DNA of 64,000 bases. Source: an uncultured Acidimicrobiaceae bacterium. Lineage in GTDB: Bacteria; Actinomycetota; Acidimicrobiia; Acidimicrobiales; Bog-793. Of this stretch, positions 480-50,185 are shown piece after piece. The notes below the pieces were generated by a model that had not been told where the DNA came from, did not search any database, and saw nothing but the letters and a program-made list of their open reading frames with translations. Position 1 is the first letter of the stretch, and the number at the start of each line of letters is the position of its first letter. A program made the position numbers and the translations under genes. The stretch covers positions 11,917-75,916 of the forward strand of contig CAWDKZ010000022.1 in NCBI GenBank assembly GCA_963803025.1, read 5' to 3'.

Positions 480-2801
480 TCATCGCGACGCGTCTGCGCC
501 GTCGGCGATCCCGGTGGTCGCGGATCTTGTCCGCGCCCGGCGGTGCCAGAAGCGCGGCACGATTCCGAGAGCGATGAGGGTGACAATGGCGAGGGCAAAG
601 AGTTCCGGATAATCGGCATAAGCCTGATACCGGAACGTCACGACGTGGCTTCCGGGGCTCACCCGGACCCCGACGTACGCGGGGCCGATCATCTCGGTCT
701 TCTCCGGTCGCCCGTCGACCGTGACGCGCCATCCCGGATCGAACGTCGCCTTGAGCAGCACGACCGCGGTGCGATTCGCCCTCACGGTCACGCGCACGAG
801 TCCGTCGGCGAGGTCGTCGGACTGGCGAATGACCTCTCCGGCGGGTCCTTTGGGGAGCTTCGGCGAGGCGAGCGTCGGGGTGGCGGCCGAGCGGCCCCCG
901 AACGCGACCACGGGGTACAGCCCTTCACCGGCACGGTCGGCTTGCACGAACGACGCCGAGTCCGCCCCGAGGTGTGCCCTGTCCTCGACGAGCGCGGGAC
1001 CGTAGGTGTCGACCACCTGGACGTAGCCGTCGTGCGGGAGGATCCAGAGCTCGTAGGCACCGGCCCGCTGGAGGAGCCGCGCGCCCGGAGGCGTCTTATG
1101 TCCCGCCGGGTAGATGAGGAAGCGCACACCGAAGAGGGCGAAGTCGGCGGGATTGGCGTCATCGAAGTACGCCTCGGGGTCGCTCATCAGCGAGAAGGTG
1201 CGGTTCGTGAAGCCGATCTCGTCCACCTGGTCGTTTGTCAGGTACTCGGCGACCGGCACCCATCCGACGCGGAAGCGCGCCCCCCAGCCCGAGAAAGCCA
1301 TGCCGGCGTAGACGCGTCCGCCGCCGAGGCGCTCAACCGTCGCGACCAGTCGGTTGACCTGCATCTCCGCAGTCGACGCGGCACGCTGCGTCGCGATGAA
1401 GCTCGCGTCGGCGGCATCGGCGCTCGCGATCTCGGTCCACGCTGGCGCCATCGCCCCGATCACGAGGCCCGCGATCAGGACACGGGCGAGGACCGGACGC
1501 AGGCCCCGGCCCAGCCAGGAGTCGATCCCCCCTCGGAACACGCGGCGTGCAGCGAGAAGGGCGAACTGTCCGAGAGCGACGGCCCCGACGCCGGCGAGGA
1601 GAACACCGCCCAGGTGCACCCCGATGAGGAAGCGTCGAGTGAAGATGTCTCGGTTGCCGGGCAGCAGGTCGTAGACCGGCCCGAGCGTCGTCCTGCCGAA
1701 GAAGAACACGAGACTCGTGAGGAAGACGAGCACGTGGGCTCGTGAGGCGAGGTGGCGCCGCCACCGCACGAGGCAGCCGAAGAGCCCGACGCCGGCGAGG
1801 ATCGTGATCACGGGAAACCGGCCCTCGTCGAAGATCTGTCCCGTCACGAGCCAGCTCAACACCTGTCGGGCGCCGTAGGAGTTGGCGTCCGGACCGTTCT
1901 GCAGGAACTCGTCGATCGACGTCCAGCCGCGGTAGGCGACCAACGGGACGATCGCCCAGGCAGCGAGGCAGAACCCACCGACGGCGACGACGAGTGCACG
2001 TCCGAGGCGCTCGACGACGCGGGACGGTCTGAGGACGAGCCACAGCGCGACCGGGACGAAGGCGAGATAGCCGGTTTCGAAGTGGAGCGCGGCGGTCAAG
2101 GCGATGAAAAGGGCGGCGAGCAGGTAGTTGCGGCCGTCGTTGACGGCCCGCCAGGAGAATCCCCAGGCGAGTGGGAGCGTCCACATGCCCCAGGCCTGCG
2201 ACCAGACCCCGAAACCGCTCCAGAGATAGGCACCCTGCTCGTATCCGATGCCGATCGCGCTCGCGAGGAAGGGCGCGACCAGGGCGGCGAACGCCGACTC
2301 CCAGCGGGTCCAGCCGAAAAGTCGCCCAGCGGCATAGACGCTGATGGGCCAGGAGACGACGAGCAGATACAGCATGAAGCTGAACGACTGATTCGCGCCA
2401 AAGACGAGTCCGATCAGCCCGGTGATCATCGCTCCGAGGCTCTGGTAGTGGAGATAAAGCGGGGACCCGAGACCGAGATACGGGAACCACCCTTCGAGGG
2501 GAAATCGGCCGGCCCTCAACAGGGCGACTGCGTAACGCACCATTTCCGAGTGGAAGGCGGAGTCGTTGAGGTGCGGTACGTACGCGATCTCCGAGCGCAG
2601 CTCGATCGCGATGAACACGACCGGGGCGAGGACGACGCCGGCCGGCCCGAAGCGGGCGAACCGCGGGGAACCGCGCCCGGGCTTCGTATCGGCAGCGCGG
2701 TCGGACTCGGTCACGGGCGCGGACGAGCCGACGGTGGCCGAAGCACGGCGAAGATCCGCGACCAAGGCATCGGACTGGCCGGGAGAATGCTCACTACCCA
2801 T
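480..2801 (-). CDS. polytopic membrane protein, YfhO-like (putative GT-C type glycosyltransferase)
   Basis: This is the 786-aa ORF, with many hydrophobic helices. The C-terminal soluble part ends PGWRVTVDGRPEKTEMIGPAYVGVRVSPGSHVVTFRYQAY followed by a terminal TM helix, as in YfhO-family proteins. I place the start at ATG 2801 (MGSEHSPG) because a GAGGA lies 9 nt upstream. Confidence 0.6.
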   Translation of the reverse strand: MGSEHSPGQSDALVADLRRASATVGSSAPVTESDRAADTKPGRGSPRFARFGPAGVVLAPVVFIAIELRSEIAYVPHLNDSAFHSEMVRYAVALLRAGRFPLEGWFPYLGLGSPLYLHYQSLGAMITGLIGLVFGANQSFSFMLYLLVVSWPISVYAAGRLFGWTRWESAFAALVAPFLASAIGIGYEQGAYLWSGFGVWSQAWGMWTLPLAWGFSWRAVNDGRNYLLAALFIALTAALHFETGYLAFVPVALWLVLRPSRVVERLGRALVVAVGGFCLAAWAIVPLVAYRGWTSIDEFLQNGPDANSYGARQVLSWLVTGQIFDEGRFPVITILAGVGLFGCLVRWRRHLASRAHVLVFLTSLVFFFGRTTLGPVYDLLPGNRDIFTRRFLIGVHLGGVLLAGVGAVALGQFALLAARRVFRGGIDSWLGRGLRPVLARVLIAGLVIGAMAPAWTEIASADAADASFIATQRAASTAEMQVNRLVATVERLGGGRVYAGMAFSGWGARFRVGWVPVAEYLTNDQVDEIGFTNRTFSLMSDPEAYFDDANPADFALFGVRFLIYPAGHKTPPGARLLQRAGAYELWILPHDGYVQVVDTYGPALVEDRAHLGADSASFVQADRAGEGLYPVVAFGGRSAATPTLASPKLPKGPAGEVIRQSDDLADGLVRVTVRANRTAVVLLKATFDPGWRVTVDGRPEKTEMIGPAYVGVRVSPGSHVVTFRYQAYADYPELFALAIVTLIALGIVPRFWHRRARTRSATTGIADGADASR

Positions 2802-2869
2802 CGGGTGAATTCCTCGGCAAGGCGTGCGCATTCGGATCATCTACCCGTCGGTTCCGCATCTCGCGACGC

Positions 2870-3334
2870 TCACGTCTTGCGAGGCGCGCTCTTGGTACAA
2901 ACCGTGTCGTGGATCAGCTTGGTGAGTTTGTGCACCTCCGTGGTGAGATCGGTGTTCTGCTGAACGGCGACCGACAGCTTGTGCTCGACGCCGCTGATCT
3001 GCTGGTCCTGCGCACTGATCCGGGCGAGGGTCCTCTCGAGGTTGCGTTCGGAGCGGTTCGACGATGCCCCCACGAGGAATCCGATGTAGAGCTCAGCGAT
3101 GGTCGTGATGGTGTTCAGCGGGAAGTTGAAACCATTCGAGGTGAACCACGCGGGCAGGAAGCTGTGCTTGGCGAAGTAGGGACCGAGCGCGATCCAGGTC
3201 CCGACGAGCAGGATCCAAATGATGATGTTCGTCGGTGTCCCCATGCCGTAGCTGACTTTGTCGGCTATCCGTTGAAACAGCGAGAGCCTTTCTGTGGTTG
3301 CGACCGACCGCGACGGGTGCAGCACCTGGTTCAT
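2870..3334 (-). CDS. small membrane protein, low-affinity iron permease (Fet4-like/PF04120)-like, with a coiled-coil tail
   Basis: The pattern FQRIADKVSYGMGTPTNIIIWILLVGTWIALGPYF...LNTITTIAELYIGFLVGASSNRSERNLE resembles that family. ATG 3334 has a GGAGG 5 nt upstream. GC is about 58% by hand count over 100 nt, lower than the flanks. Confidence 0.6.
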   Translation of the reverse strand: MNQVLHPSRSVATTERLSLFQRIADKVSYGMGTPTNIIIWILLVGTWIALGPYFAKHSFLPAWFTSNGFNFPLNTITTIAELYIGFLVGASSNRSERNLERTLARISAQDQQISGVEHKLSVAVQQNTDLTTEVHKLTKLIHDTVCTKSAPRKT

Positions 3335-3641
3335 CACGCCTCCGTTCTCGCTCCTGTTGGTCGTGAAGCGTAGGGCGTCGGAATCGAGGATCGATGGACG
3401 GCAACTGCCCGGCAAGAGGCGGATAGGGGGCCTGTCCGTGGCTGCGTCCGGCAGGCCTCGTCCGAGAGCGCCGGGCGCTGCCGGCGGACGGTGTCGATCC
3501 GGCGCGAGCCGGATAGCCGTCCCCGCCGGTCAGCCGTGGCCGACGTCGCGCCTCACCTCGCCCGGGGACCCTCGCCGTCGGGGGCTCGCGGCCGGTTCGT
3601 AGGACGCGCCGACCCACGGTGGGCGGCGCGGGTGGGTTCGG

Positions 3642-5231: not shown

Positions 5232-6743
5232 GTGGCCCGCAAGTTCTTCATCCGTACCTTCGGTTGCCAGATGAACGAGCACGACTCCGAGCGGATCGCC
5301 GCCGACCTCGTCGCGGACGGCCTCGAGCGCACCGACGACCTCGACGCGGCGGACGTCGTCGTCCTCAACACCTGCTGCATCCGCGAGAACGCCGACACCA
5401 AGCTCTACGGTCACCTCGGCCAGCTGAAGTCGCTCGCCGAGCGCCGACCGGGCCTCCAGATCGCGGTGGGGGGTTGCCTCGCGCAAAAAGAGCGGGAGGC
5501 GATCCTCGCCCGGGCGCCCCATGTCGCGGCGGTCTTCGGCACGCACAACGTCGGGCGGGCCGGGCACCTCCTCGCCGAGGCCCGACGCCTCGGCCGCCCG
5601 GTGGTGGAGGTCCTCGAGGCGCGAAGCGACGACGCCGACGCCTTCGCCGCAGCGCAGCTCGTCCGTCCGGATCTGGCGTATGCGGCGTGGGTGACGATCC
5701 AGGTCGGCTGCAACAACTCCTGTGCCTTCTGCGTCGTGCCGTCGGTGCGCGGTCCCGAGCAGAGCCGGCCCTTCGGCGAGCTCGTCGAGGAGGTGCGGGT
5801 CCTCGCCGCACGCGGCACGACCGAGGTGACCCTCCTCGGCCAGAACGTGAACTCCTACGGCCGAGACCTCGCGCTCCGGTTGCGGAACACGCCCGGGAGC
5901 CACCTCGACGAGGCGCGCCTCGCCGGCGCGGCCTGGGCCGACGACAAGAGCCGCGCGCCGCGGCCGCTCTTCGCCGATCTGCTGCGGGCGATCGGCGCGA
6001 TCGAGGGGATCCGCCGGGTCCGGTTCACGAGCCCGCACCCCAAGGACCTCCGCCCGGAGACGATCGCCGCGATCACCGAGACCGGGGCGGTTTGTGAGCA
6101 GCTCCACCTGCCGCTCCAGTCCGGGAGCGACCGCGTGCTCGCCGCCATGCGCCGCGGCTACAGCGCGCGGCGGTACCTCGACCGGCTCGCCGCGGCGCGC
6201 GCCGCGATCCCCGACCTGGCGGTGACGACCGACGTCATCGTCGGCTTCCCCGGCGAGACCGACGCTGACTTCGACGAGACGCTCGCGGTCGTCGCCGAGG
6301 CCGCCTACGACAGCGCCTTCACCTTCGTCTTCTCGCCGCGGTCAGGCACGCGGGCTGCCGAGATGATCGACGCCTTCGTCCCCCCCGGCGTGATCGCGGA
6401 GCGCTTCGCCCGCCTGAAGGAGGTCGTCGACCGCTCGGCGTTGCAGCGCAACCGGGCGCGCATCGGGCGCGTCGAAGAGGTCGTCGTCGAGGGGCCCTCG
6501 AAGAAGGACCCCGGCGTCCTCGCCGGGAGGACGCGCCAGGGAAAACTCGTCCACTTCGACGGGGGGGAGCGCGGCATGGCGCCGGGCGTCTACGGCACGG
6601 TCCGCATCTCCTCGGCGGGACCGCACCACCTTGCCGGCGAGCTGGAGTCGCGCGAAGCATCCGCCGTTGCGCGACGCGACCGTCGGCGAACCGCGCTCCC
6701 CGGGCGCACCTCGGGGCTGCGAATCGCGGCCGATTTCCGCTGA
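5232..6743 (+). CDS. miaB: tRNA-2-methylthio-N6-dimethylallyladenosine synthase
   Basis: It has the N-terminal FIRTFGCQMNEHDSE, the radical-SAM CNNSCAFC motif and a TRAM-like C-terminus. The start is GTG 5232. Confidence 0.93.
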   Translation: MARKFFIRTFGCQMNEHDSERIAADLVADGLERTDDLDAADVVVLNTCCIRENADTKLYGHLGQLKSLAERRPGLQIAVGGCLAQKEREAILARAPHVAAVFGTHNVGRAGHLLAEARRLGRPVVEVLEARSDDADAFAAAQLVRPDLAYAAWVTIQVGCNNSCAFCVVPSVRGPEQSRPFGELVEEVRVLAARGTTEVTLLGQNVNSYGRDLALRLRNTPGSHLDEARLAGAAWADDKSRAPRPLFADLLRAIGAIEGIRRVRFTSPHPKDLRPETIAAITETGAVCEQLHLPLQSGSDRVLAAMRRGYSARRYLDRLAAARAAIPDLAVTTDVIVGFPGETDADFDETLAVVAEAAYDSAFTFVFSPRSGTRAAEMIDAFVPPGVIAERFARLKEVVDRSALQRNRARIGRVEEVVVEGPSKKDPGVLAGRTRQGKLVHFDGGERGMAPGVYGTVRISSAGPHHLAGELESREASAVARRDRRRTALPGRTSGLRIAADFR

Positions 6744-6809
6744 TATCGACGCGCGCACGGTTGTCGCCCAGGCGGGATCGCGCCGGGCCCGGACGTAGAC
6801 TGCCGTGAC

Positions 6810-9548
<2,739 letters not shown>

Positions 9549-9554
9549 AGCGCG

Positions 9555-10718
9555 ATGGCGCCCGCAGACGAGCGCGGGTCCCGTCCGGATGCGGGGACCG
9601 AATCGACGTCGATCGCCGAGGACCTTGGCGCGCTCCGGGTCCGTCTCGACGCGGCACGGAGCTACCTGCGTCTCGACGAGCTCGTCGCCGAGATGGCGAG
9701 GCTCGAGCCCGAGGTCGAGGCGCCCGACCTCTGGTCGGACCCCGAGCACGCCCGGGCGGTGACGACCGCCTACGGGCGCGTGCGGACCGAGGTGGAGACC
9801 TTCCGGAGCCTCGCCGCGCAGCTCGAGGACGCCGCGGCGCTCCACGAGATCGCGACGGCCGAGGGCCCCGACGCCCTCGCCTCGGTCGAGGACGACCTCG
9901 CCGGGTCGGTCGCCGCACTCGGGCGCGCCCTCGACGACCTGGAGCTGCACAGCCTGTTCTCCGGCGAGCACGACGACCGGGACGCGGTCTGCGAGGTGCA
10001 CGCCGGCGCCGGCGGCACCGACGCCCAGGACTGGGCGGAGATGCTGCTCCGGATGTACCTGCGCTGGGCGGAACGCAGGAGCTTCTCGGCCGAACTCGAG
10101 GAGGTGACGGCCGGCCAAGAGGCGGGGATCCTGTCGGCGACGTTCATCATCCGCGGCCGCCACGCCTACGGGCTCCTGTGCGCCGAGCGCGGCGTCCACC
10201 GTCTCGTGCGGATGTCGCCGTTCGACTCGGCGCACCGCCGCCACACGAGCTTCGCGTCGCTCGAGGTGACGCCGTTCCTCGAGGATCTCTCGGCCGAGGT
10301 CGTCATCGACGAGAAGGAGCTGCGCGTCGACACCTACCGCTCGTCGGGGGCAGGCGGGCAGCACGTCAACGTGACCGACTCGGCGGTGCGGCTCACGCAC
10401 CTGCCGACGGGGATCGTCGTCGCGGTGCAGAACGAGCGGAGCCAGTACCAGAACAAGGCGAAGGCGATGCAGATCCTCGCTGCCAAGATCGCCGAGCGCC
10501 AGCGCGAGGAGCGCCGCCGGGAGCTCGCGCAGCTCGCCGGGCCGCAGACCGAGATCGAGTGGGGAAGCCAGATCCGCTCGTACGTGCTCGCGCCCTATCA
10601 GCTCGTGAAAGACGTCCGGACCGAGCACGAGACCGGGGACGTGGAGGCCGTGCTCGACGGGGACCTCGACGCGTTCATGGTGGCCTACCTGCGCTGGCGC
10701 CGGGGCGGCGCGCCGTAA
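9555..10718 (+). CDS. prfB: peptide chain release factor 2 (single uninterrupted frame)
   Basis: It carries GAGGQHVNVTDSAVRLTHLPTGIVV (GGQ motif) and the SPF tripeptide (RMSPFDS). The N-terminal helical region is in the same frame, so there is no internal UGA frameshift site. Confidence 0.93.
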   Translation: MAPADERGSRPDAGTESTSIAEDLGALRVRLDAARSYLRLDELVAEMARLEPEVEAPDLWSDPEHARAVTTAYGRVRTEVETFRSLAAQLEDAAALHEIATAEGPDALASVEDDLAGSVAALGRALDDLELHSLFSGEHDDRDAVCEVHAGAGGTDAQDWAEMLLRMYLRWAERRSFSAELEEVTAGQEAGILSATFIIRGRHAYGLLCAERGVHRLVRMSPFDSAHRRHTSFASLEVTPFLEDLSAEVVIDEKELRVDTYRSSGAGGQHVNVTDSAVRLTHLPTGIVVAVQNERSQYQNKAKAMQILAAKIAERQREERRRELAQLAGPQTEIEWGSQIRSYVLAPYQLVKDVRTEHETGDVEAVLDGDLDAFMVAYLRWRRGGAP

Positions 10719-30104: not shown

Positions 30105-30245
30105 CGGCGGGAGGAGCGAGCGGCCGCGACCGCGCCGGGGCCGGACGGATTTTCGCCCGGGCCGTCCGGACGGACCGCGAGGTGTTCCTCGTGAAGTGCT
30201 GGAGCGTCGCGGGCGACCCGGGTAACATCCCCGTGCAAGCAGTCG

Positions 30246-30405
30246 CACCTCGTTCGGTGAGGCGGCTCGTCGCACAGAGGCCACTGACCCCACCTGTCGA
30301 AAGACACTCCGGGTCAGGACAGACTTTCCCGGCACAAGGGATCGTCCGAAGTGGCTGGCCGTACGGCCCACGGCGGCGGGCGCCAAAGCTCTGACGAGAG
30401 GGGTG
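30246..30405 (+). promoter_or_regulatory. M-box (ykoK leader) Mg2+-sensing riboswitch
   Basis: Hand alignment to the B. subtilis mgtE M-box finds four matching blocks: CGUUCGGUGAGGC (vs GUUAGGUGAGGC), GUCGAAAGAC...GGGUCAGGACAG (vs GUCCAAAGACGCUAAUGGGUCAACAG), CACAAGGG (vs CAUAAGGUG) and GCCAAAGCUCUGACGAG (vs GCUAAAGCUCUACGAU). A P1 pairing CCUCGU/ACGAG closes the element, which is about 160 nt. It lies 235 nt upstream of a transporter gene. Confidence 0.75.
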
Positions 30406-30640
30406 CGCCGAGGCGTTTGCCGCGGCGGTCCGTGCCCAACGGACTCCACCCACGCCGACTGGAGCTTGGGCACGACAAGGGAGAACCCCTGAGCGCCGAT
30501 AGACGTTCGTCCGACCGACGATGGCGCACGTCTCTCACGAGGTGACATGAGGGTTCGGTGACCCGAACCGGCCTCCTGCGGGCGTGCGCGACCGAACAGC
30601 AACGTCCGCGAAGCCCGAATCTGCGGGAGGTCGACCGAGC

Positions 30641-46823: not shown

Positions 46824-47753
46824 TCAGCGCGCCGGCCGCGCGCCGGGGGTCGCGATCGCCCGCGCCGCGGCGGCGAGGCCCGCGGTAAGGGCGTCTCCCG
46901 CCGGCGAGTCGGCGAGCCAGGCGGCGAGGAACGTCCCGGTGAAGGCGTCGCCGGCCCCGGTCGTGTCGACCACCACACCGCGGGGCGCGGGGAGGATGAG
47001 CGCCGGCGTGCCGTCCTTCGACCAGAGCGCGCCAAGCGGGCCGAGGGTGAGGACGACCTCGCCGAAGTGCGCACCGAGTCGGCGCGCGACCGCCTCGGGG
47101 TCCTGTTCACCCGTGAGCACACGGCCCTCGTCGAGATTCGCACAGCACAGGTCGATCCCGTTGGTCCACGACAGGAACTCCTCCGCGCCGATCCTCGCGA
47201 GCGGACCCGCCGAGGAGGGGTCGAGCGAGCGCGACATCCCCGATCGTTCGCTCCGGCGGAGGATCTCGATCGCGGCGTCGCGGGTCTCGTCGTCGAGCAG
47301 TTCGTAGCCGGAGAGGTGGAGGTGATCTCCGGGCCGGAAGAGCGTCGCGGGCAGCCGAGCCGTCGTCAGGGCGAGATTCGCGCCCCGGTCGGTGAGCATC
47401 GAGCGCTGTCCCAACTCGTCGACGACCGAGACGACGACGCCGCTCTGCCGGTCGGGAACTCGGACGAGGTGCGCCGTGACCCCCTCGGCGCGTAGGGTGT
47501 GTCTCGACGCACGGCCAAGATCATCGTCGCCGACCACGCCGACGAGGTGCACCTCGACGCCGCAGCGGGCGAGCCAAACCGCCTGATTCGCAGCCGATCC
47601 GCCCGGCGCGATCGTGATCGACGACGGCGTGTCGCTTGCCGGGGCGAAAGTCGCGTGCTCGCGCACGATGACGTCGGTCATGACGTCGCCGACGACGACG
47701 ACCCGCCGCGCGGCACCGGGGCGCGCGCCTCTCCTTCGGCCGCGGATCCTCAC
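46824..47753 (-). CDS. PfkB-family carbohydrate kinase, probable pseudouridine kinase
   Basis: VVVVGDVMTDVIV and VDTTGAGDAFTGTFLAAW are present. Its GTG start overlaps the psuG stop (GTGA). Confidence 0.8.
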   Translation of the reverse strand: MRIRGRRRGARPGAARRVVVVGDVMTDVIVREHATFAPASDTPSSITIAPGGSAANQAVWLARCGVEVHLVGVVGDDDLGRASRHTLRAEGVTAHLVRVPDRQSGVVVSVVDELGQRSMLTDRGANLALTTARLPATLFRPGDHLHLSGYELLDDETRDAAIEILRRSERSGMSRSLDPSSAGPLARIGAEEFLSWTNGIDLCCANLDEGRVLTGEQDPEAVARRLGAHFGEVVLTLGPLGALWSKDGTPALILPAPRGVVVDTTGAGDAFTGTFLAAWLADSPAGDALTAGLAAAARAIATPGARPAR

Positions 47754-48700
47754 GGCGCGGTCTTCCTCGGCGGGCGCGGCGCCGCGGCGAGCGCCACCGC
47801 GATCCGGGCGGCGAGCACGGCGTTGCGCCGCACGATGGCGCGATTGACGCGCACGCTCTCACCGGCCGTCGCCGCGGCAAGGCGCGCGAGGAGGAACGGC
47901 GTCACGTCCTTGCCCGACACGTGCGCGGCCTCGGCGAGACGGAGCGCTTCGGCGAGGGCGGCGTCGTGGCGCACCGGGGCGAGCTCATCGGCTGGGGCGA
48001 CGGGATTGGCGAGCAACATCCCGCCCGGCGCGACCCGGCGGTGCGCGGCGAAGGCGAGGGCGGCCTCCTCGGGTGAGGCGACGCTCCAGTCGAGCCGGTG
48101 TTCGGTGACCGAGACGTAGAAACCCGGGAAGCGCGCGGTGCCGTAGCCGACGACCGGCACGCCGAGGGTTTCGAGGCGTTCCAGCGTGGCGGCGACGTCG
48201 AGGACCGATTTCACGCCCGAGGCGACGACGAGGATGGGGACGTCACGCATCGTCTCGAGGTCAGCCGAGACGTCCCAGGTCTCCTGGGCGTCGCGGTGGA
48301 CGCCGCCGAGCCCTCCCGTCGCCATCACCTCGATGCCCGCGAGTGCGGCGAGGGTAATCGTCCCGGCGACCGTCGTCGCCCCGTCGACGCCGGCGGCGAC
48401 GGCGACGCCGAGGTCACGCCGGCTGAGTTTCGCAACGGCGCCTCCCGGGTCGGCGAGACGCTCGATCTCGGTCGCCGACAACCCGACGGTCGCGACGCCG
48501 GCGACGACGCCGACGGTCGCGGCCTCGGCGCCCTGGTCCCGGACGTCCTGTTCGAGCTGGCGGGCGACCTCGAGGTTCTCCGGGCTCGGCAGCCCGTGGG
48601 CGATCAGTGTCGTCTCGAGCGCGACGACGCCGCGTCCATCGGCCAGGGCTTGGCGCACGTGGTCCCCGAGGCGGAACTGGCGACCTGCGGCGACTTCCAC
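47750..48700 (-). CDS. psuG: pseudouridine-5'-phosphate glycosidase
   Basis: VVALETTLIAHGLPSPENL, ATGGLGGVHR and SGVKSVLD are conserved PsuG blocks. The start is either GTG 48700 (native GC) or ATG 48742, which lies in low-GC island sequence. Confidence 0.88.
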   Translation of the reverse strand: MEVAAGRQFRLGDHVRQALADGRGVVALETTLIAHGLPSPENLEVARQLEQDVRDQGAEAATVGVVAGVATVGLSATEIERLADPGGAVAKLSRRDLGVAVAAGVDGATTVAGTITLAALAGIEVMATGGLGGVHRDAQETWDVSADLETMRDVPILVVASGVKSVLDVAATLERLETLGVPVVGYGTARFPGFYVSVTEHRLDWSVASPEEAALAFAAHRRVAPGGMLLANPVAPADELAPVRHDAALAEALRLAEAAHVSGKDVTPFLLARLAAATAGESVRVNRAIVRRNAVLAARIAVALAAAPRPPRKTAP

Positions 48701-48710
48701 GCGGCGAAAT

Positions 48711-48950
48711 TTATACGTATGGGTGAAACACGAAGCGATCAATTGTTTCTTCTTGTTCGAGGGTCAGTATCGGCTGACCCTTATCCCTTATGACCTCCGC
48801 AATAAGAAACGTTGAGGCAATGACCTCAAACTCTCCTCGCCGGGCGGCCTCAAGAATCTGTCGGGCCGTATCGGCTCTCCCATGCTCACCTTTGATGGCG
48901 GCGATATACACAGAGCTATCTAGATAGGGGCGCTTGTAGCTCGGTTCCAT
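48711..48950 (-). CDS. PIN-domain (VapC-like) protein, C-terminally truncated remnant
   Basis: MEPSYKRPYLDSSVYIAAIKGE...STFLIAEVI carries the first Asp (D11) and the Glu (E52) of the PIN acidic quartet. The ORF stops after 79 aa, exactly at the low-GC/high-GC junction, so the distal acidic residues are missing. Confidence 0.6.
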   Translation of the reverse strand: MEPSYKRPYLDSSVYIAAIKGEHGRADTARQILEAARRGEFEVIASTFLIAEVIRDKGQPILTLEQEETIDRFVFHPYV

Positions 48951-49685
48951 TTAGCTCAACTGCTCGATGTACTCACCGGTTCCCAATCTGCCGGTGAAGT
49001 TCGGATCTAATCCGATCAGATCGTCAACCGATGGCAGTTCTTCTTCGAGGGGCAATGGTTCAAGGATCGGCTTTTCAACCCGTAGCGGTTGACCTCTGCG
49101 ATTGCGGTAGATGATGCCCCGCACGCGCACCCGAGCACCTAGAGCGTCTTTTACGATTGCAAGGTCTTGATGAGGGAACCGGCAAGCAACGGCACGATAC
49201 CACAACTGGTCGTAGACGTTGAACAGATTGCCACCGCGGAAGGAAATGAGCTCAAGCTTTCCGATGACGGACACAATGCCCTTGTTCTTCACGGACATGA
49301 GATCATGAACGTTGGTTGCGGCCTGGCGCGTGACGTGAGCCGACGCATGATCGGCATGACCGTTAAGCGAAATGGCATCAAGGTGGGTCGATTCGTCACT
49401 GGCAAACCACTTCGCCATCGCGCCGACTCGACGTAGGTCGTACTCAACTAAGTAGGGCGGAAGATGATCCCCCTCTTGGATCGTGGCGAGACCGTTCACG
49501 TATTCCGTGCATAGAAATACGGGAAAGTCATCTGCGACGAGGGTAGAGCTTCGAGAGCTGATAATCGTGTCAGTACTTCCATTACGAAGGTCGGCGATAA
49601 GCCATTCGATCTGCGCGGATTGTTGCTTGTCGATGGCGTCGCCAATGCGGCCAAGTGCGCCCGTGGCAGATTGCAGCACGCGCAC
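48951..49685 (-). CDS. hypothetical protein (244 aa), unknown family; possible cognate partner of the PIN ORF
   Basis: Its stop TAA (48953-48951) directly abuts the PIN ATG (48950). The C-terminal third looks beta-rich and OB-like, and the tail is LPSVDDLIGLDPNFTGRLGTGEYIEQLS. The GTG start has no clear SD. The frame is open only 11 codons further upstream, so 5' truncation is possible. Confidence 0.55.
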   Translation of the reverse strand: MRVLQSATGALGRIGDAIDKQQSAQIEWLIADLRNGSTDTIISSRSSTLVADDFPVFLCTEYVNGLATIQEGDHLPPYLVEYDLRRVGAMAKWFASDESTHLDAISLNGHADHASAHVTRQAATNVHDLMSVKNKGIVSVIGKLELISFRGGNLFNVYDQLWYRAVACRFPHQDLAIVKDALGARVRVRGIIYRNRRGQPLRVEKPILEPLPLEEELPSVDDLIGLDPNFTGRLGTGEYIEQLS

Positions 49686-49738
49686 AAACTCATGGACGGG
49701 AATAGTGCCCTCGGGAGCCTAGTGTAGTGTCCCGTGCC

Positions 49739-50185
49739 ATGCCCCCGGTGGGGGAGCATCCGAGGATCGAGATCGACTGGCGTGACCTGCGCGCCCGCGC
49801 GATGCGGGCTGCGAAGCGTGCCTATGCGCCGTATTCCGGGCTGAGTGTCGGTGCCGCGGGTCTCGTGCCCGACGGTCGGGTCTTCGTCGGTTGCAACGTC
49901 GAGAACGCCTCGTACGGCCTGACGCTCTGTGCCGAGTGCGGTCTTGTCTCGAACCTCGTCGTGGCGGGAGCGGAGGGGCTCGTCGCCGTCAGTGTTGTCG
50001 CCCTCGACGGCAGGCCGCTCACGCCGTGCGGTCGCTGCCGCCAGCTCCTCATCGAGCACGGCAGTGTCGGTCTCCTGCTCGACAAGGGTGAGGAGTCGGC
50101 GCCGACACCGATGCGGGACCTGTTGCCCGAGGCGTGGCGACTCCCCTCGGACATCCCGTCGGTCCGGACGCCGAGTGCCCGCTAG
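49739..50185 (+). CDS. cdd: cytidine deaminase
   Basis: It has the zinc motifs CAECGLV and PCGRCRQLL, plus AYAPYSGLSVGAA. The start is ATG 49739, with GTG 49727 as an alternative. Confidence 0.92.
   Translation: MPPVGEHPRIEIDWRDLRARAMRAAKRAYAPYSGLSVGAAGLVPDGRVFVGCNVENASYGLTLCAECGLVSNLVVAGAEGLVAVSVVALDGRPLTPCGRCRQLLIEHGSVGLLLDKGEESAPTPMRDLLPEAWRLPSDIPSVRTPSAR

Follow-up and report, generated by a model that had tools for sequence, protein, structure and literature searches.

Between psuG, a pseudouridine-5'-phosphate glycosidase gene, and cdd, a cytidine deaminase gene, in a 64,000-nucleotide stretch of contig CAWDKZ010000022.1 from an uncultured Acidimicrobiaceae bacterium (the whole of this stretch is called the window here), lies an island of low G+C content (GC) that carries pieces of two genes related to a PIN-nuclease cassette. 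The native flanks are psuG at 47750-48700 on the minus strand (Pfam Indigoidine_A, E = 8e-107; orthologous start GTG 48700) and cdd at 49739-50185 on the plus strand (Pfam dCMP_cyt_deam_1; orthologous start ATG 49739; 77% identity to its counterparts in L005 and L006, two relatives introduced below). From composition, and from alignment of both flanks to the uninterrupted junction of those relatives, the foreign insert extends as an unstranded feature from 48708 to 49720 (1,013 bp, 54% GC). Its GC of 0.540 compares with 0.708 +/- 0.027 for the other 1,013-bp windows of the 64 kb (z = -6.3), the lowest of which reaches 0.627, and in 200-bp sliding windows GC runs at 0.72-0.76 up to about 48700, at 0.52-0.57 up to about 49700 and at 0.68-0.77 thereafter. 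The abrupt drop of about 1 kb noticed in a preliminary description of this DNA is therefore confirmed; the island is real, and its limits, first placed at 48705 and 49725, are refined to 48708 and 49720 (+/- 2 nt, an uncertainty that applies at the psuG side). At third codon positions GC (GC3) amounts to 0.61 and 0.54 for the two open reading frames (ORFs) of the island, whereas five host genes (psuG, psuK, cdd, add and one for a permease) lie at 0.84-0.93. These two minus-strand ORFs, at 48951-49685 (244 aa, GTG start) and 48711-48950 (79 aa), abut with zero spacing, the TAA of the first being followed directly by the ATG of the second, as the preliminary description had it, and the insert consists of two gene fragments and nothing else. 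The island is foreign and derives from a PIN-associated cassette. Elsewhere in the window the next-lowest GC (0.59-0.63) occurs at about 2350-3400, a dip far milder than the island.

The site without the insert can be read in related genomes. A scan of species-representative genomes with PsuG as the query places the host in Acidimicrobiales and identifies as its closest relatives two metagenome-assembled genomes (MAGs), L005 and L006 (PsuG 82% identical), followed by L007 (62%). The divergent cdd/psuG layout is shared only by these three, in which the two start codons stand 24-27 nt apart, compared with 1,038 nt in the window, and the low-GC stretch is absent at the L005 locus, the relative locus that was profiled. 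At the nucleotide level the junction of the relatives reads ...CAT-CACGTC-GGACACTACACT|TCCGGACGC-GTG..., and around the junction the empty site of L005, L006 and L007 reads ...GGACACTACACT|TCCGGACGCGTG... On the minus strand of the window, ...GGACACTACACT continues to 49721, AGGCTCCC... begins at 49720, the island ends with ...CGTATAAATT at 48708, and TCGCCGC-GTG follows, with the psuG GTG at 48700. The native flanks are kept to within about 2 nt of the empty site and nothing is duplicated; the junctions share no more than 1-2 nt (T or TT), with a possible loss of 2 nt. We read the alignment as a clean insertion into the 24-27-nt divergent interval between cdd and psuG, and the empty psuG-cdd site in all three relatives bears out the proposal that this DNA was acquired horizontally.

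The downstream fragment (48711-48950, minus strand) corresponds to 79 of the approximately 153 codons of a VapC-like PIN gene and is truncated at its 3' end. The 79-aa ORF reaches 20.5 bits (E = 7.5e-4) against the Pfam PIN profile (PF01850), for which the cut-off is 23.6 bits, and it matches positions 2-43 of the 120 in the profile. Scans of Pfam, NCBIfam, PADLOC and PHROGs together gave this ORF PIN matches alone, all of them sub-threshold. In an alignment of PIN partners (alignment A4) it is homologous to its very last codon (IDRFVFHPYV* vs IDAWVFHEFVTWVELD...) and ends about 74 residues early, at a point past which its homologs continue with TWVELD...DAVHLASA...WDxRF. PIN nucleases need four conserved acidic residues for metal-dependent catalysis; D11 and E52 are present in the fragment, and the aspartates of DAVHLASA and WDxRF lie beyond the truncation. 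The ORF thus derives from a PIN gene but encodes an incomplete domain. Its closest relative, P0003, is 60% identical and is itself degenerate (L001 8001-8393; also in L002 and L085): PIN similarity ends after ITWVELDLSL, and the half containing DAVHLASA and WDxRF is missing. A frameshift was suspected in P0003 and rejected, since the missing half is encoded in no alternative frame and the degeneration is of another kind. P0003, which in metagenome contigs is directly preceded by a 256-aa homolog of the upstream island gene, is an independently decayed copy of the same cassette type.

The upstream fragment (48951-49718, minus strand) belongs to a protein family that we designate family A, and it is truncated at its 5' end. 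Homology extends from the codons for APEG, beginning at 49718, to the stop, and the 244-aa ORF is merely the longest reading from an internal GTG at 49685. The frame upstream of that GTG is still homologous (APEGTIPVHEFVRVL vs EGQPGTIPGSVLARVL in L001) until it meets a TAG stop at the junction (49719-49721, minus strand), in which the T is native and the AG foreign and which, as sequence and translation agree, closes the foreign frame on its 5' side. The N-termini of family A read MxRLxLxIEGxxGxI..F..VL (alignment A1); the window copy begins at codon 10 of the first cassette gene and lacks the start codon and the first nine family residues (MxRLxLxIE, strand beta-1). In a confident AlphaFold2 (AF2) model of a full-length N-terminal domain, with a predicted local distance difference test score (pLDDT) of 95.5, strand beta-1 occupies residues 2-9. 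No Shine-Dalgarno sequence precedes GTG 49685. The public annotation contains only a 155-aa gene, P0001, at 48951-49418 on the minus strand, starting at Met90 of the 244-aa ORF, which agrees with the lack of a proper start or ribosome-binding site at the truncated 5' end.

The preliminary description recognized no family for the 244-aa ORF, and this part of it has to be abandoned. Pfam, NCBIfam, PADLOC and PHROGs all lack a match to the ORF, and among 5.8 billion clusters a word-indexed search returned only the ORF itself; a profile version of the indexed search gained little, the sole name returned being 'hypothetical protein'. The orphan appearance is an artefact of the word-indexed method. 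When 1.84 billion representatives, counted as clusters at 50% identity, are searched exhaustively with HMMER, a family of at least 1,107 clusters emerges (the number at E <= 1e-3, of which 234 reach E <= 1e-10). Its members are mostly 260-270 aa and align end to end, with residue 2 of the query falling at about residue 22 of the homologs; the best non-self match has E = 2.7e-40, and identity in this search reaches 45%. Compared with the 13 members in alignment A1, the ORF is 32-38% identical, and 14 columns are invariant in all rows, the window copy included; identity over the full length is 34% to the PIN-adjacent 256-aa gene in L001. The 244-aa protein is a member of an unnamed family and not an orphan. 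Among 116 family A members there is no Pfam or NCBIfam match beyond noise.

Intact versions of the cassette are widespread in other bacteria. Loci with a full-length or contig-clipped family A copy were drawn from metagenomes (21 loci: L001-L004, L085-L096 and L099-L103) and from three homologs, for a total of 24. In all 21 metagenome loci a PIN-like ORF, typically of 152-158 aa, overlaps the family A stop codon by 1-28 nt. The gene next to the best homolog, P0004, encodes a 154-aa PF01850 protein with a 1-nt overlap, and downstream of P0155, P0005 and P0007 lies in each case a gene for a 160-161-aa protein with a precomputed PF01850 match. Every row of alignment A4 (14 of 14, the window fragment among them) matches PF01850 at E <= 0.01, the best (2.9e-19) being an intact partner. 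The intact partners, of about 153 aa, carry the motifs YLDSSV, AEVI, DAVHLASA and WDxRF, and a PDB search with their profile finds the VapC structure 7by2. A family A gene is coupled to an overlapping PIN gene in every locus examined. The earlier reading of the island as a two-gene PIN-associated cassette holds on this evidence; it would have been weakened by homologs never adjacent to PIN genes, and a PIN gene was adjacent throughout. Where neighbors could be read, intact pairs adjoin type I and type IIG restriction-modification genes, ParE/Phd, an HNH protein and IS481/IS1595 transposases. The neighborhoods at L001 4173-7124, L003 1664-4714, L106/L107 ~5900-10100 and L110 762-1699 are defense-island or mobile contexts, and they also include a methyltransferase-Mrr fusion, a 1,016-aa N6_Mtase/Eco57I-type enzyme and type I restriction-modification fragments (EcoEI_R_C, Methylase_S).

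Comparison of the window copy with these intact cassettes makes it highly probable, in our judgment, that the island is a single 1,013-bp foreign piece, an internal segment of a PIN cassette that was broken before arrival and captured by homology-independent joining. The truncations of the two genes fall exactly at the insertion junctions, and what remains of the genes is arranged collinearly and without a gap, just as intact cassettes are; the fragment spans codon 10 of the first gene to codon 79 of the PIN gene. Because the cuts are the junctions and the flanks are otherwise intact, the cassette arrived already broken. With native sequence directly next to foreign coding sequence at each end and the pieces contiguous, the simplest history is one insertion of a pre-truncated fragment. 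Without a start codon or promoter of its own for the first gene and with half of the PIN active site missing, the module was never functional in this genome and cannot act there as a toxin-antitoxin (TA) or defense module. The preliminary description had offered an uncharacterized system or the remnant of one, and of these the remnant stands and the working system does not, both genes being cut at the junctions. The event seems to have been recent, given that GC3 is unameliorated and both frames are fully open. The nearest protein relatives are 40-45% identical for the partner and 54-60% identical for the PIN protein, and searches for a donor gave no match in plasmids or phages for the 244-aa ORF (tblastn), in plasmids for the island (blastn) or in IMG/VR viral contigs for family A.

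How the fragment entered is constrained by what surrounds it. No direct or inverted terminal repeats occur at the island edges, no target-site duplication, att/attC site, integrase or transposase was found at the island, no tRNA gene lies within +/-5 kb, and the island has no Rfam match. A transposon, an integron, a tRNA-targeted island and an RNA element were all rejected on these grounds (no edge repeats, tRNA or Rfam match), in agreement with the earlier report of no integrase, transposase, tRNA or repeat, for which the edges and +/-5 kb were checked. The same report had called the acquisition mechanism unclear, which is no longer wholly so, since the junction anatomy fits homology-independent end joining: the absence of any mobile-element signature, the microhomology of at most 1-2 nt and the possible 2-nt loss together describe the scar of such joining. 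The junctions are homology-free, show small end processing and lack a duplication, as is characteristic of nonhomologous end joining (NHEJ), and homology-independent end joining at a chromosome break is, on this sequence evidence, the likeliest mode of entry. A stray DNA fragment was probably captured when a double-strand break was mended, whether by NHEJ or by illegitimate recombination of another form. In Actinobacteria NHEJ is a common pathway, and insertions of nuclear mitochondrial DNA (NUMT) and of filler DNA are eukaryotic analogues of fragment capture by this pathway. In Sinorhizobium meliloti, Ku/LigD NHEJ has been found experimentally to capture heterologous DNA fragments at chromosomal double-strand breaks (Dupuy et al. 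2019, PMC6379672). The present case resembles Sinorhizobium capture in that an arbitrary fragment was inserted without homology, duplication or element machinery and with small end losses; it differs in being a natural event deduced from sequence, and other routes of illegitimate recombination leave similar scars. It would represent an unusually clean natural case of a chromosome break patched with stray foreign DNA, with junctions near base resolution, and to our knowledge NHEJ-type capture has seldom been documented at such resolution in natural genomes.

The insertion also raises the question of how the flanking genes are now expressed. Two overlapping native hexamers resembling -10 elements occupy 49721-49730, namely TACACT (49726-49721, minus strand) and TAGTGT (49725-49730, plus strand). 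TACACT precedes the ancestral psuG start by 9-10 nt in the window and in all three relatives, the distance in the window having been 9 nt before the insertion; in the window, L005 and L006, TAGTGT precedes the cdd ATG by 8 nt. The hexamers of the relatives lie at L005 5976-5991, L006 5586-5601 and L007 ~5950-5960. Leaderless transcripts are common in Actinobacteria, and the two hexamers look like putative back-to-back -10 boxes for transcripts of this kind. The insert starts at the base right after TACACT, exactly between psuG and its putative -10 box, so that cdd would keep its putative box with new upstream sequence and psuG would now stand 1 kb from its own. Expression of psuG-psuK probably now occurs by one of two routes. 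Transcription may read through the fragment from the old promoter, in which case the PIN-fragment stop, located 10 nt before the psuG GTG, would allow re-initiation; the insert ORFs are co-oriented with psuG. Alternatively, transcription may begin from a TAAATT that by chance closes the fragment on its psuG side (48708-48713, minus strand), 7 nt before the GTG, a putative replacement -10 whose first three bases are the PIN-fragment stop; the pattern TAnnnT occurs at 3 of 1,008 positions on the minus strand of the island, a count made post hoc. A scan for the sigma-70 consensus found no promoter, and terminator-like sites were at chance level, none of them convincing between the fragment and psuG. 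Each of the two routes would account for the tolerance of the insertion. With respect to translation, the ORF finder begins psuG at a TTG at 48742, within the foreign DNA (48698-48742, minus strand), which adds 14 residues (MIASCFTHTYKFRR); this in-frame TTG could be an alternative psuG start created by the insertion.

Several points weigh against capture of a pre-broken fragment as we describe it. The nearest relatives are 82% identical at the protein level, which fixes the ancestral junction only to about 2 nt, and any part played by Ku and LigD in this host is presumptive, the analysis covering 64 kb of its genome. The promoter statements draw on conserved hexamers and their spacing, and an assembly artefact retains a formal, if small, probability for this contig. 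Finally, both ORFs are fully open and keep every family-invariant residue, which fits either a very recent arrival or selection for residual function. The latter would be expected had the fragment been co-opted, whether to give psuG-psuK a promoter or a translated leader or to supply, as a truncated OB-fold protein (its oligonucleotide/oligosaccharide-binding fold is described below), an orphan antidote against incoming PIN cassettes. The shared orientation with psuG, the absence of a convincing terminator between them, the placement of the stop and of TAAATT 10 and 7 nt before the GTG and the rarity of TAnnnT are consistent with co-option. We nevertheless regard it as unlikely, since the unameliorated GC3 points to a recent arrival, which alone is enough to explain the open frames, the hexamer argument is post hoc, the insert is carried by only one genome, and the GTG at 49685 has neither a Shine-Dalgarno sequence nor a place in the public annotation, which has only the 155-aa gene.

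Other histories fare worse against the junctions. Gene remnants are common in decaying islands, and the insert might be what is left of a larger island that brought a complete cassette and was then whittled by deletions. Such an origin is quite improbable: there is no residual non-cassette foreign DNA, foreign coding sequence directly abuts native sequence at both ends, the pieces have remained collinear and contiguous, the flanks agree with the empty site to about 2 nt, and two independent deletions would have been required, each ending exactly at an original junction. A chimeric join of foreign reads into a native contig during assembly or binning could be suspected because the nearest relatives are all MAGs, so that this contig may be one as well, and because the insert is present on a single contig; a chimera would need to enter the foreign DNA, leave it and come back to the same 27-nt native interval, and the junctions share no repeat able to mislead an assembler, making this explanation very remote. 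An intact and working two-gene TA or defense module, for which the co-directional ORFs with TAA followed by ATG and the conservation of homologous pairs among restriction-modification, ParE/Phd and insertion sequence (IS) genes would speak, can be set aside almost entirely given a PIN ORF of 79 of about 153 residues with a sub-threshold Pfam score and no third or fourth acidic residue, and a partner with no start codon, no strand beta-1 and no PADLOC match. Capture of a broken cassette segment thus accounts best for the locus, and the captured genes, both cut at their edges, would have been non-functional on arrival. The case also provides a caution, in that low-GC islets of defense-like appearance may be inert debris.

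The intact cassette raises a separate question, which is what the partner of the PIN protein does. The high-confidence structural model of the 244-aa protein (pLDDT 93.3; predicted template modeling score, pTM, 0.83) contains an OB fold at residues ~115-210, for which Foldseek matches have a probability of 0.99-1.0 and E = 3e-3 to 2e-2. This fold resembles the anticodon-binding domain of class IIb (lysyl) aminoacyl-tRNA synthetases, Stn1/RPA and the RecG wedge, a likeness at the level of fold only, with 10-20% identity and a template modeling (TM) score of ~0.25 over the whole query; two family A members have faint matches to Pfam tRNA_anti-codon. For the N-terminal domain, a ferredoxin-like alpha+beta fold of a generic kind, the searches gave no specific relative (E >= 0.018). 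Beyond the OB fold the protein ends in a conserved C-terminal tail, LPxxxxLxGxxPDFTG..EY. Fold searches with the 244-aa model found no whole-protein structural relative, and a PDB sequence search with the family A profile gave a chance-level match only. Two similarities to candidate defense proteins were considered. The best match among viral predicted structures, spanning 236 of 244 residues (E = 2.7e-5), is to DUF6575, a domain that occurs in one experimentally selected anti-phage system of E. coli (PMC9519451). With a TM score of 0.33, an rmsd (root-mean-square deviation) of 15 A and no sequence match in any family A member, the DUF6575 similarity may serve as a lead; it is too weak to classify the protein and does not amount to a relationship. 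The window ORFs have no match in PADLOC (PADLOC-DB 2.0), and the PADLOC check of homologs suggested earlier for a defense module returned weak matches to PDC-M32A in 4 of 116 family A members (best E = 2e-4), with no match in the other 112 and none between the PIN partners and PDC-M32B; PDC-M32 was rejected as a classification for this reason, and it is itself an uncharacterized candidate (PMC12429752).

The closest functional comparison is with VapBC. As in VapBC, the intact downstream gene encodes a PF01850 PIN protein with the canonical acidic residues, the partner lies upstream and overlaps the start of the putative toxin gene, and the pairs occur among mobile and defense genes. VapB antitoxins are typically 70-90 aa, whereas the family A partner is ~265 aa, has a ferredoxin-like and an OB fold and lacks an AbrB, RHH, PhD or HTH domain; the copy in the window differs further in being a broken fragment. 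No recognized antitoxin DNA-binding domain (AbrB, RHH, PhD/YefM or HTH) was found in the 116 family A members or in the predicted folds. The layout of the window pair is that of a type II TA system (adjacent, co-directional and coupled, with the partner upstream), and the intact cassette likewise is type II TA in layout and fails to qualify by its antitoxin domain. Most likely, we infer, the intact pair is VapBC-like and translationally coupled, with the PIN RNase inhibited or directed by the tail and OB fold of its large partner and not by a DNA-binding antitoxin domain. We suggest tentatively, at slightly short of an even chance, that these cassettes constitute an undescribed class of PIN-nuclease module in which a ~265-aa protein with a ferredoxin-like domain, an OB fold of the anticodon-binding type and a conserved C-terminal tail has the task of controlling or targeting a VapC-like RNase, perhaps because it senses or presents an RNA substrate, and takes the place of a small DNA-binding antitoxin, and, secondarily, that the fragment in the window is kept as a psuG promoter or a leader for coupled translation. 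The architecture is unlike that of known VapB proteins and offers a testable candidate for a new form of PIN toxin control.

What the island preserves is a relic, probably left by end-joining capture, of a PIN module whose partner is undescribed. The fragment nonetheless led to a sizeable unnamed family outside Pfam, NCBIfam, PADLOC and PHROGs, PIN-coupled in 24 of 24 loci. Away from the island, the sole Rfam match in the whole window is an M-box (magnesium) riboswitch (RF00380) at 30242-30409 on the plus strand, which scores 119 bits against a gathering score of 44.

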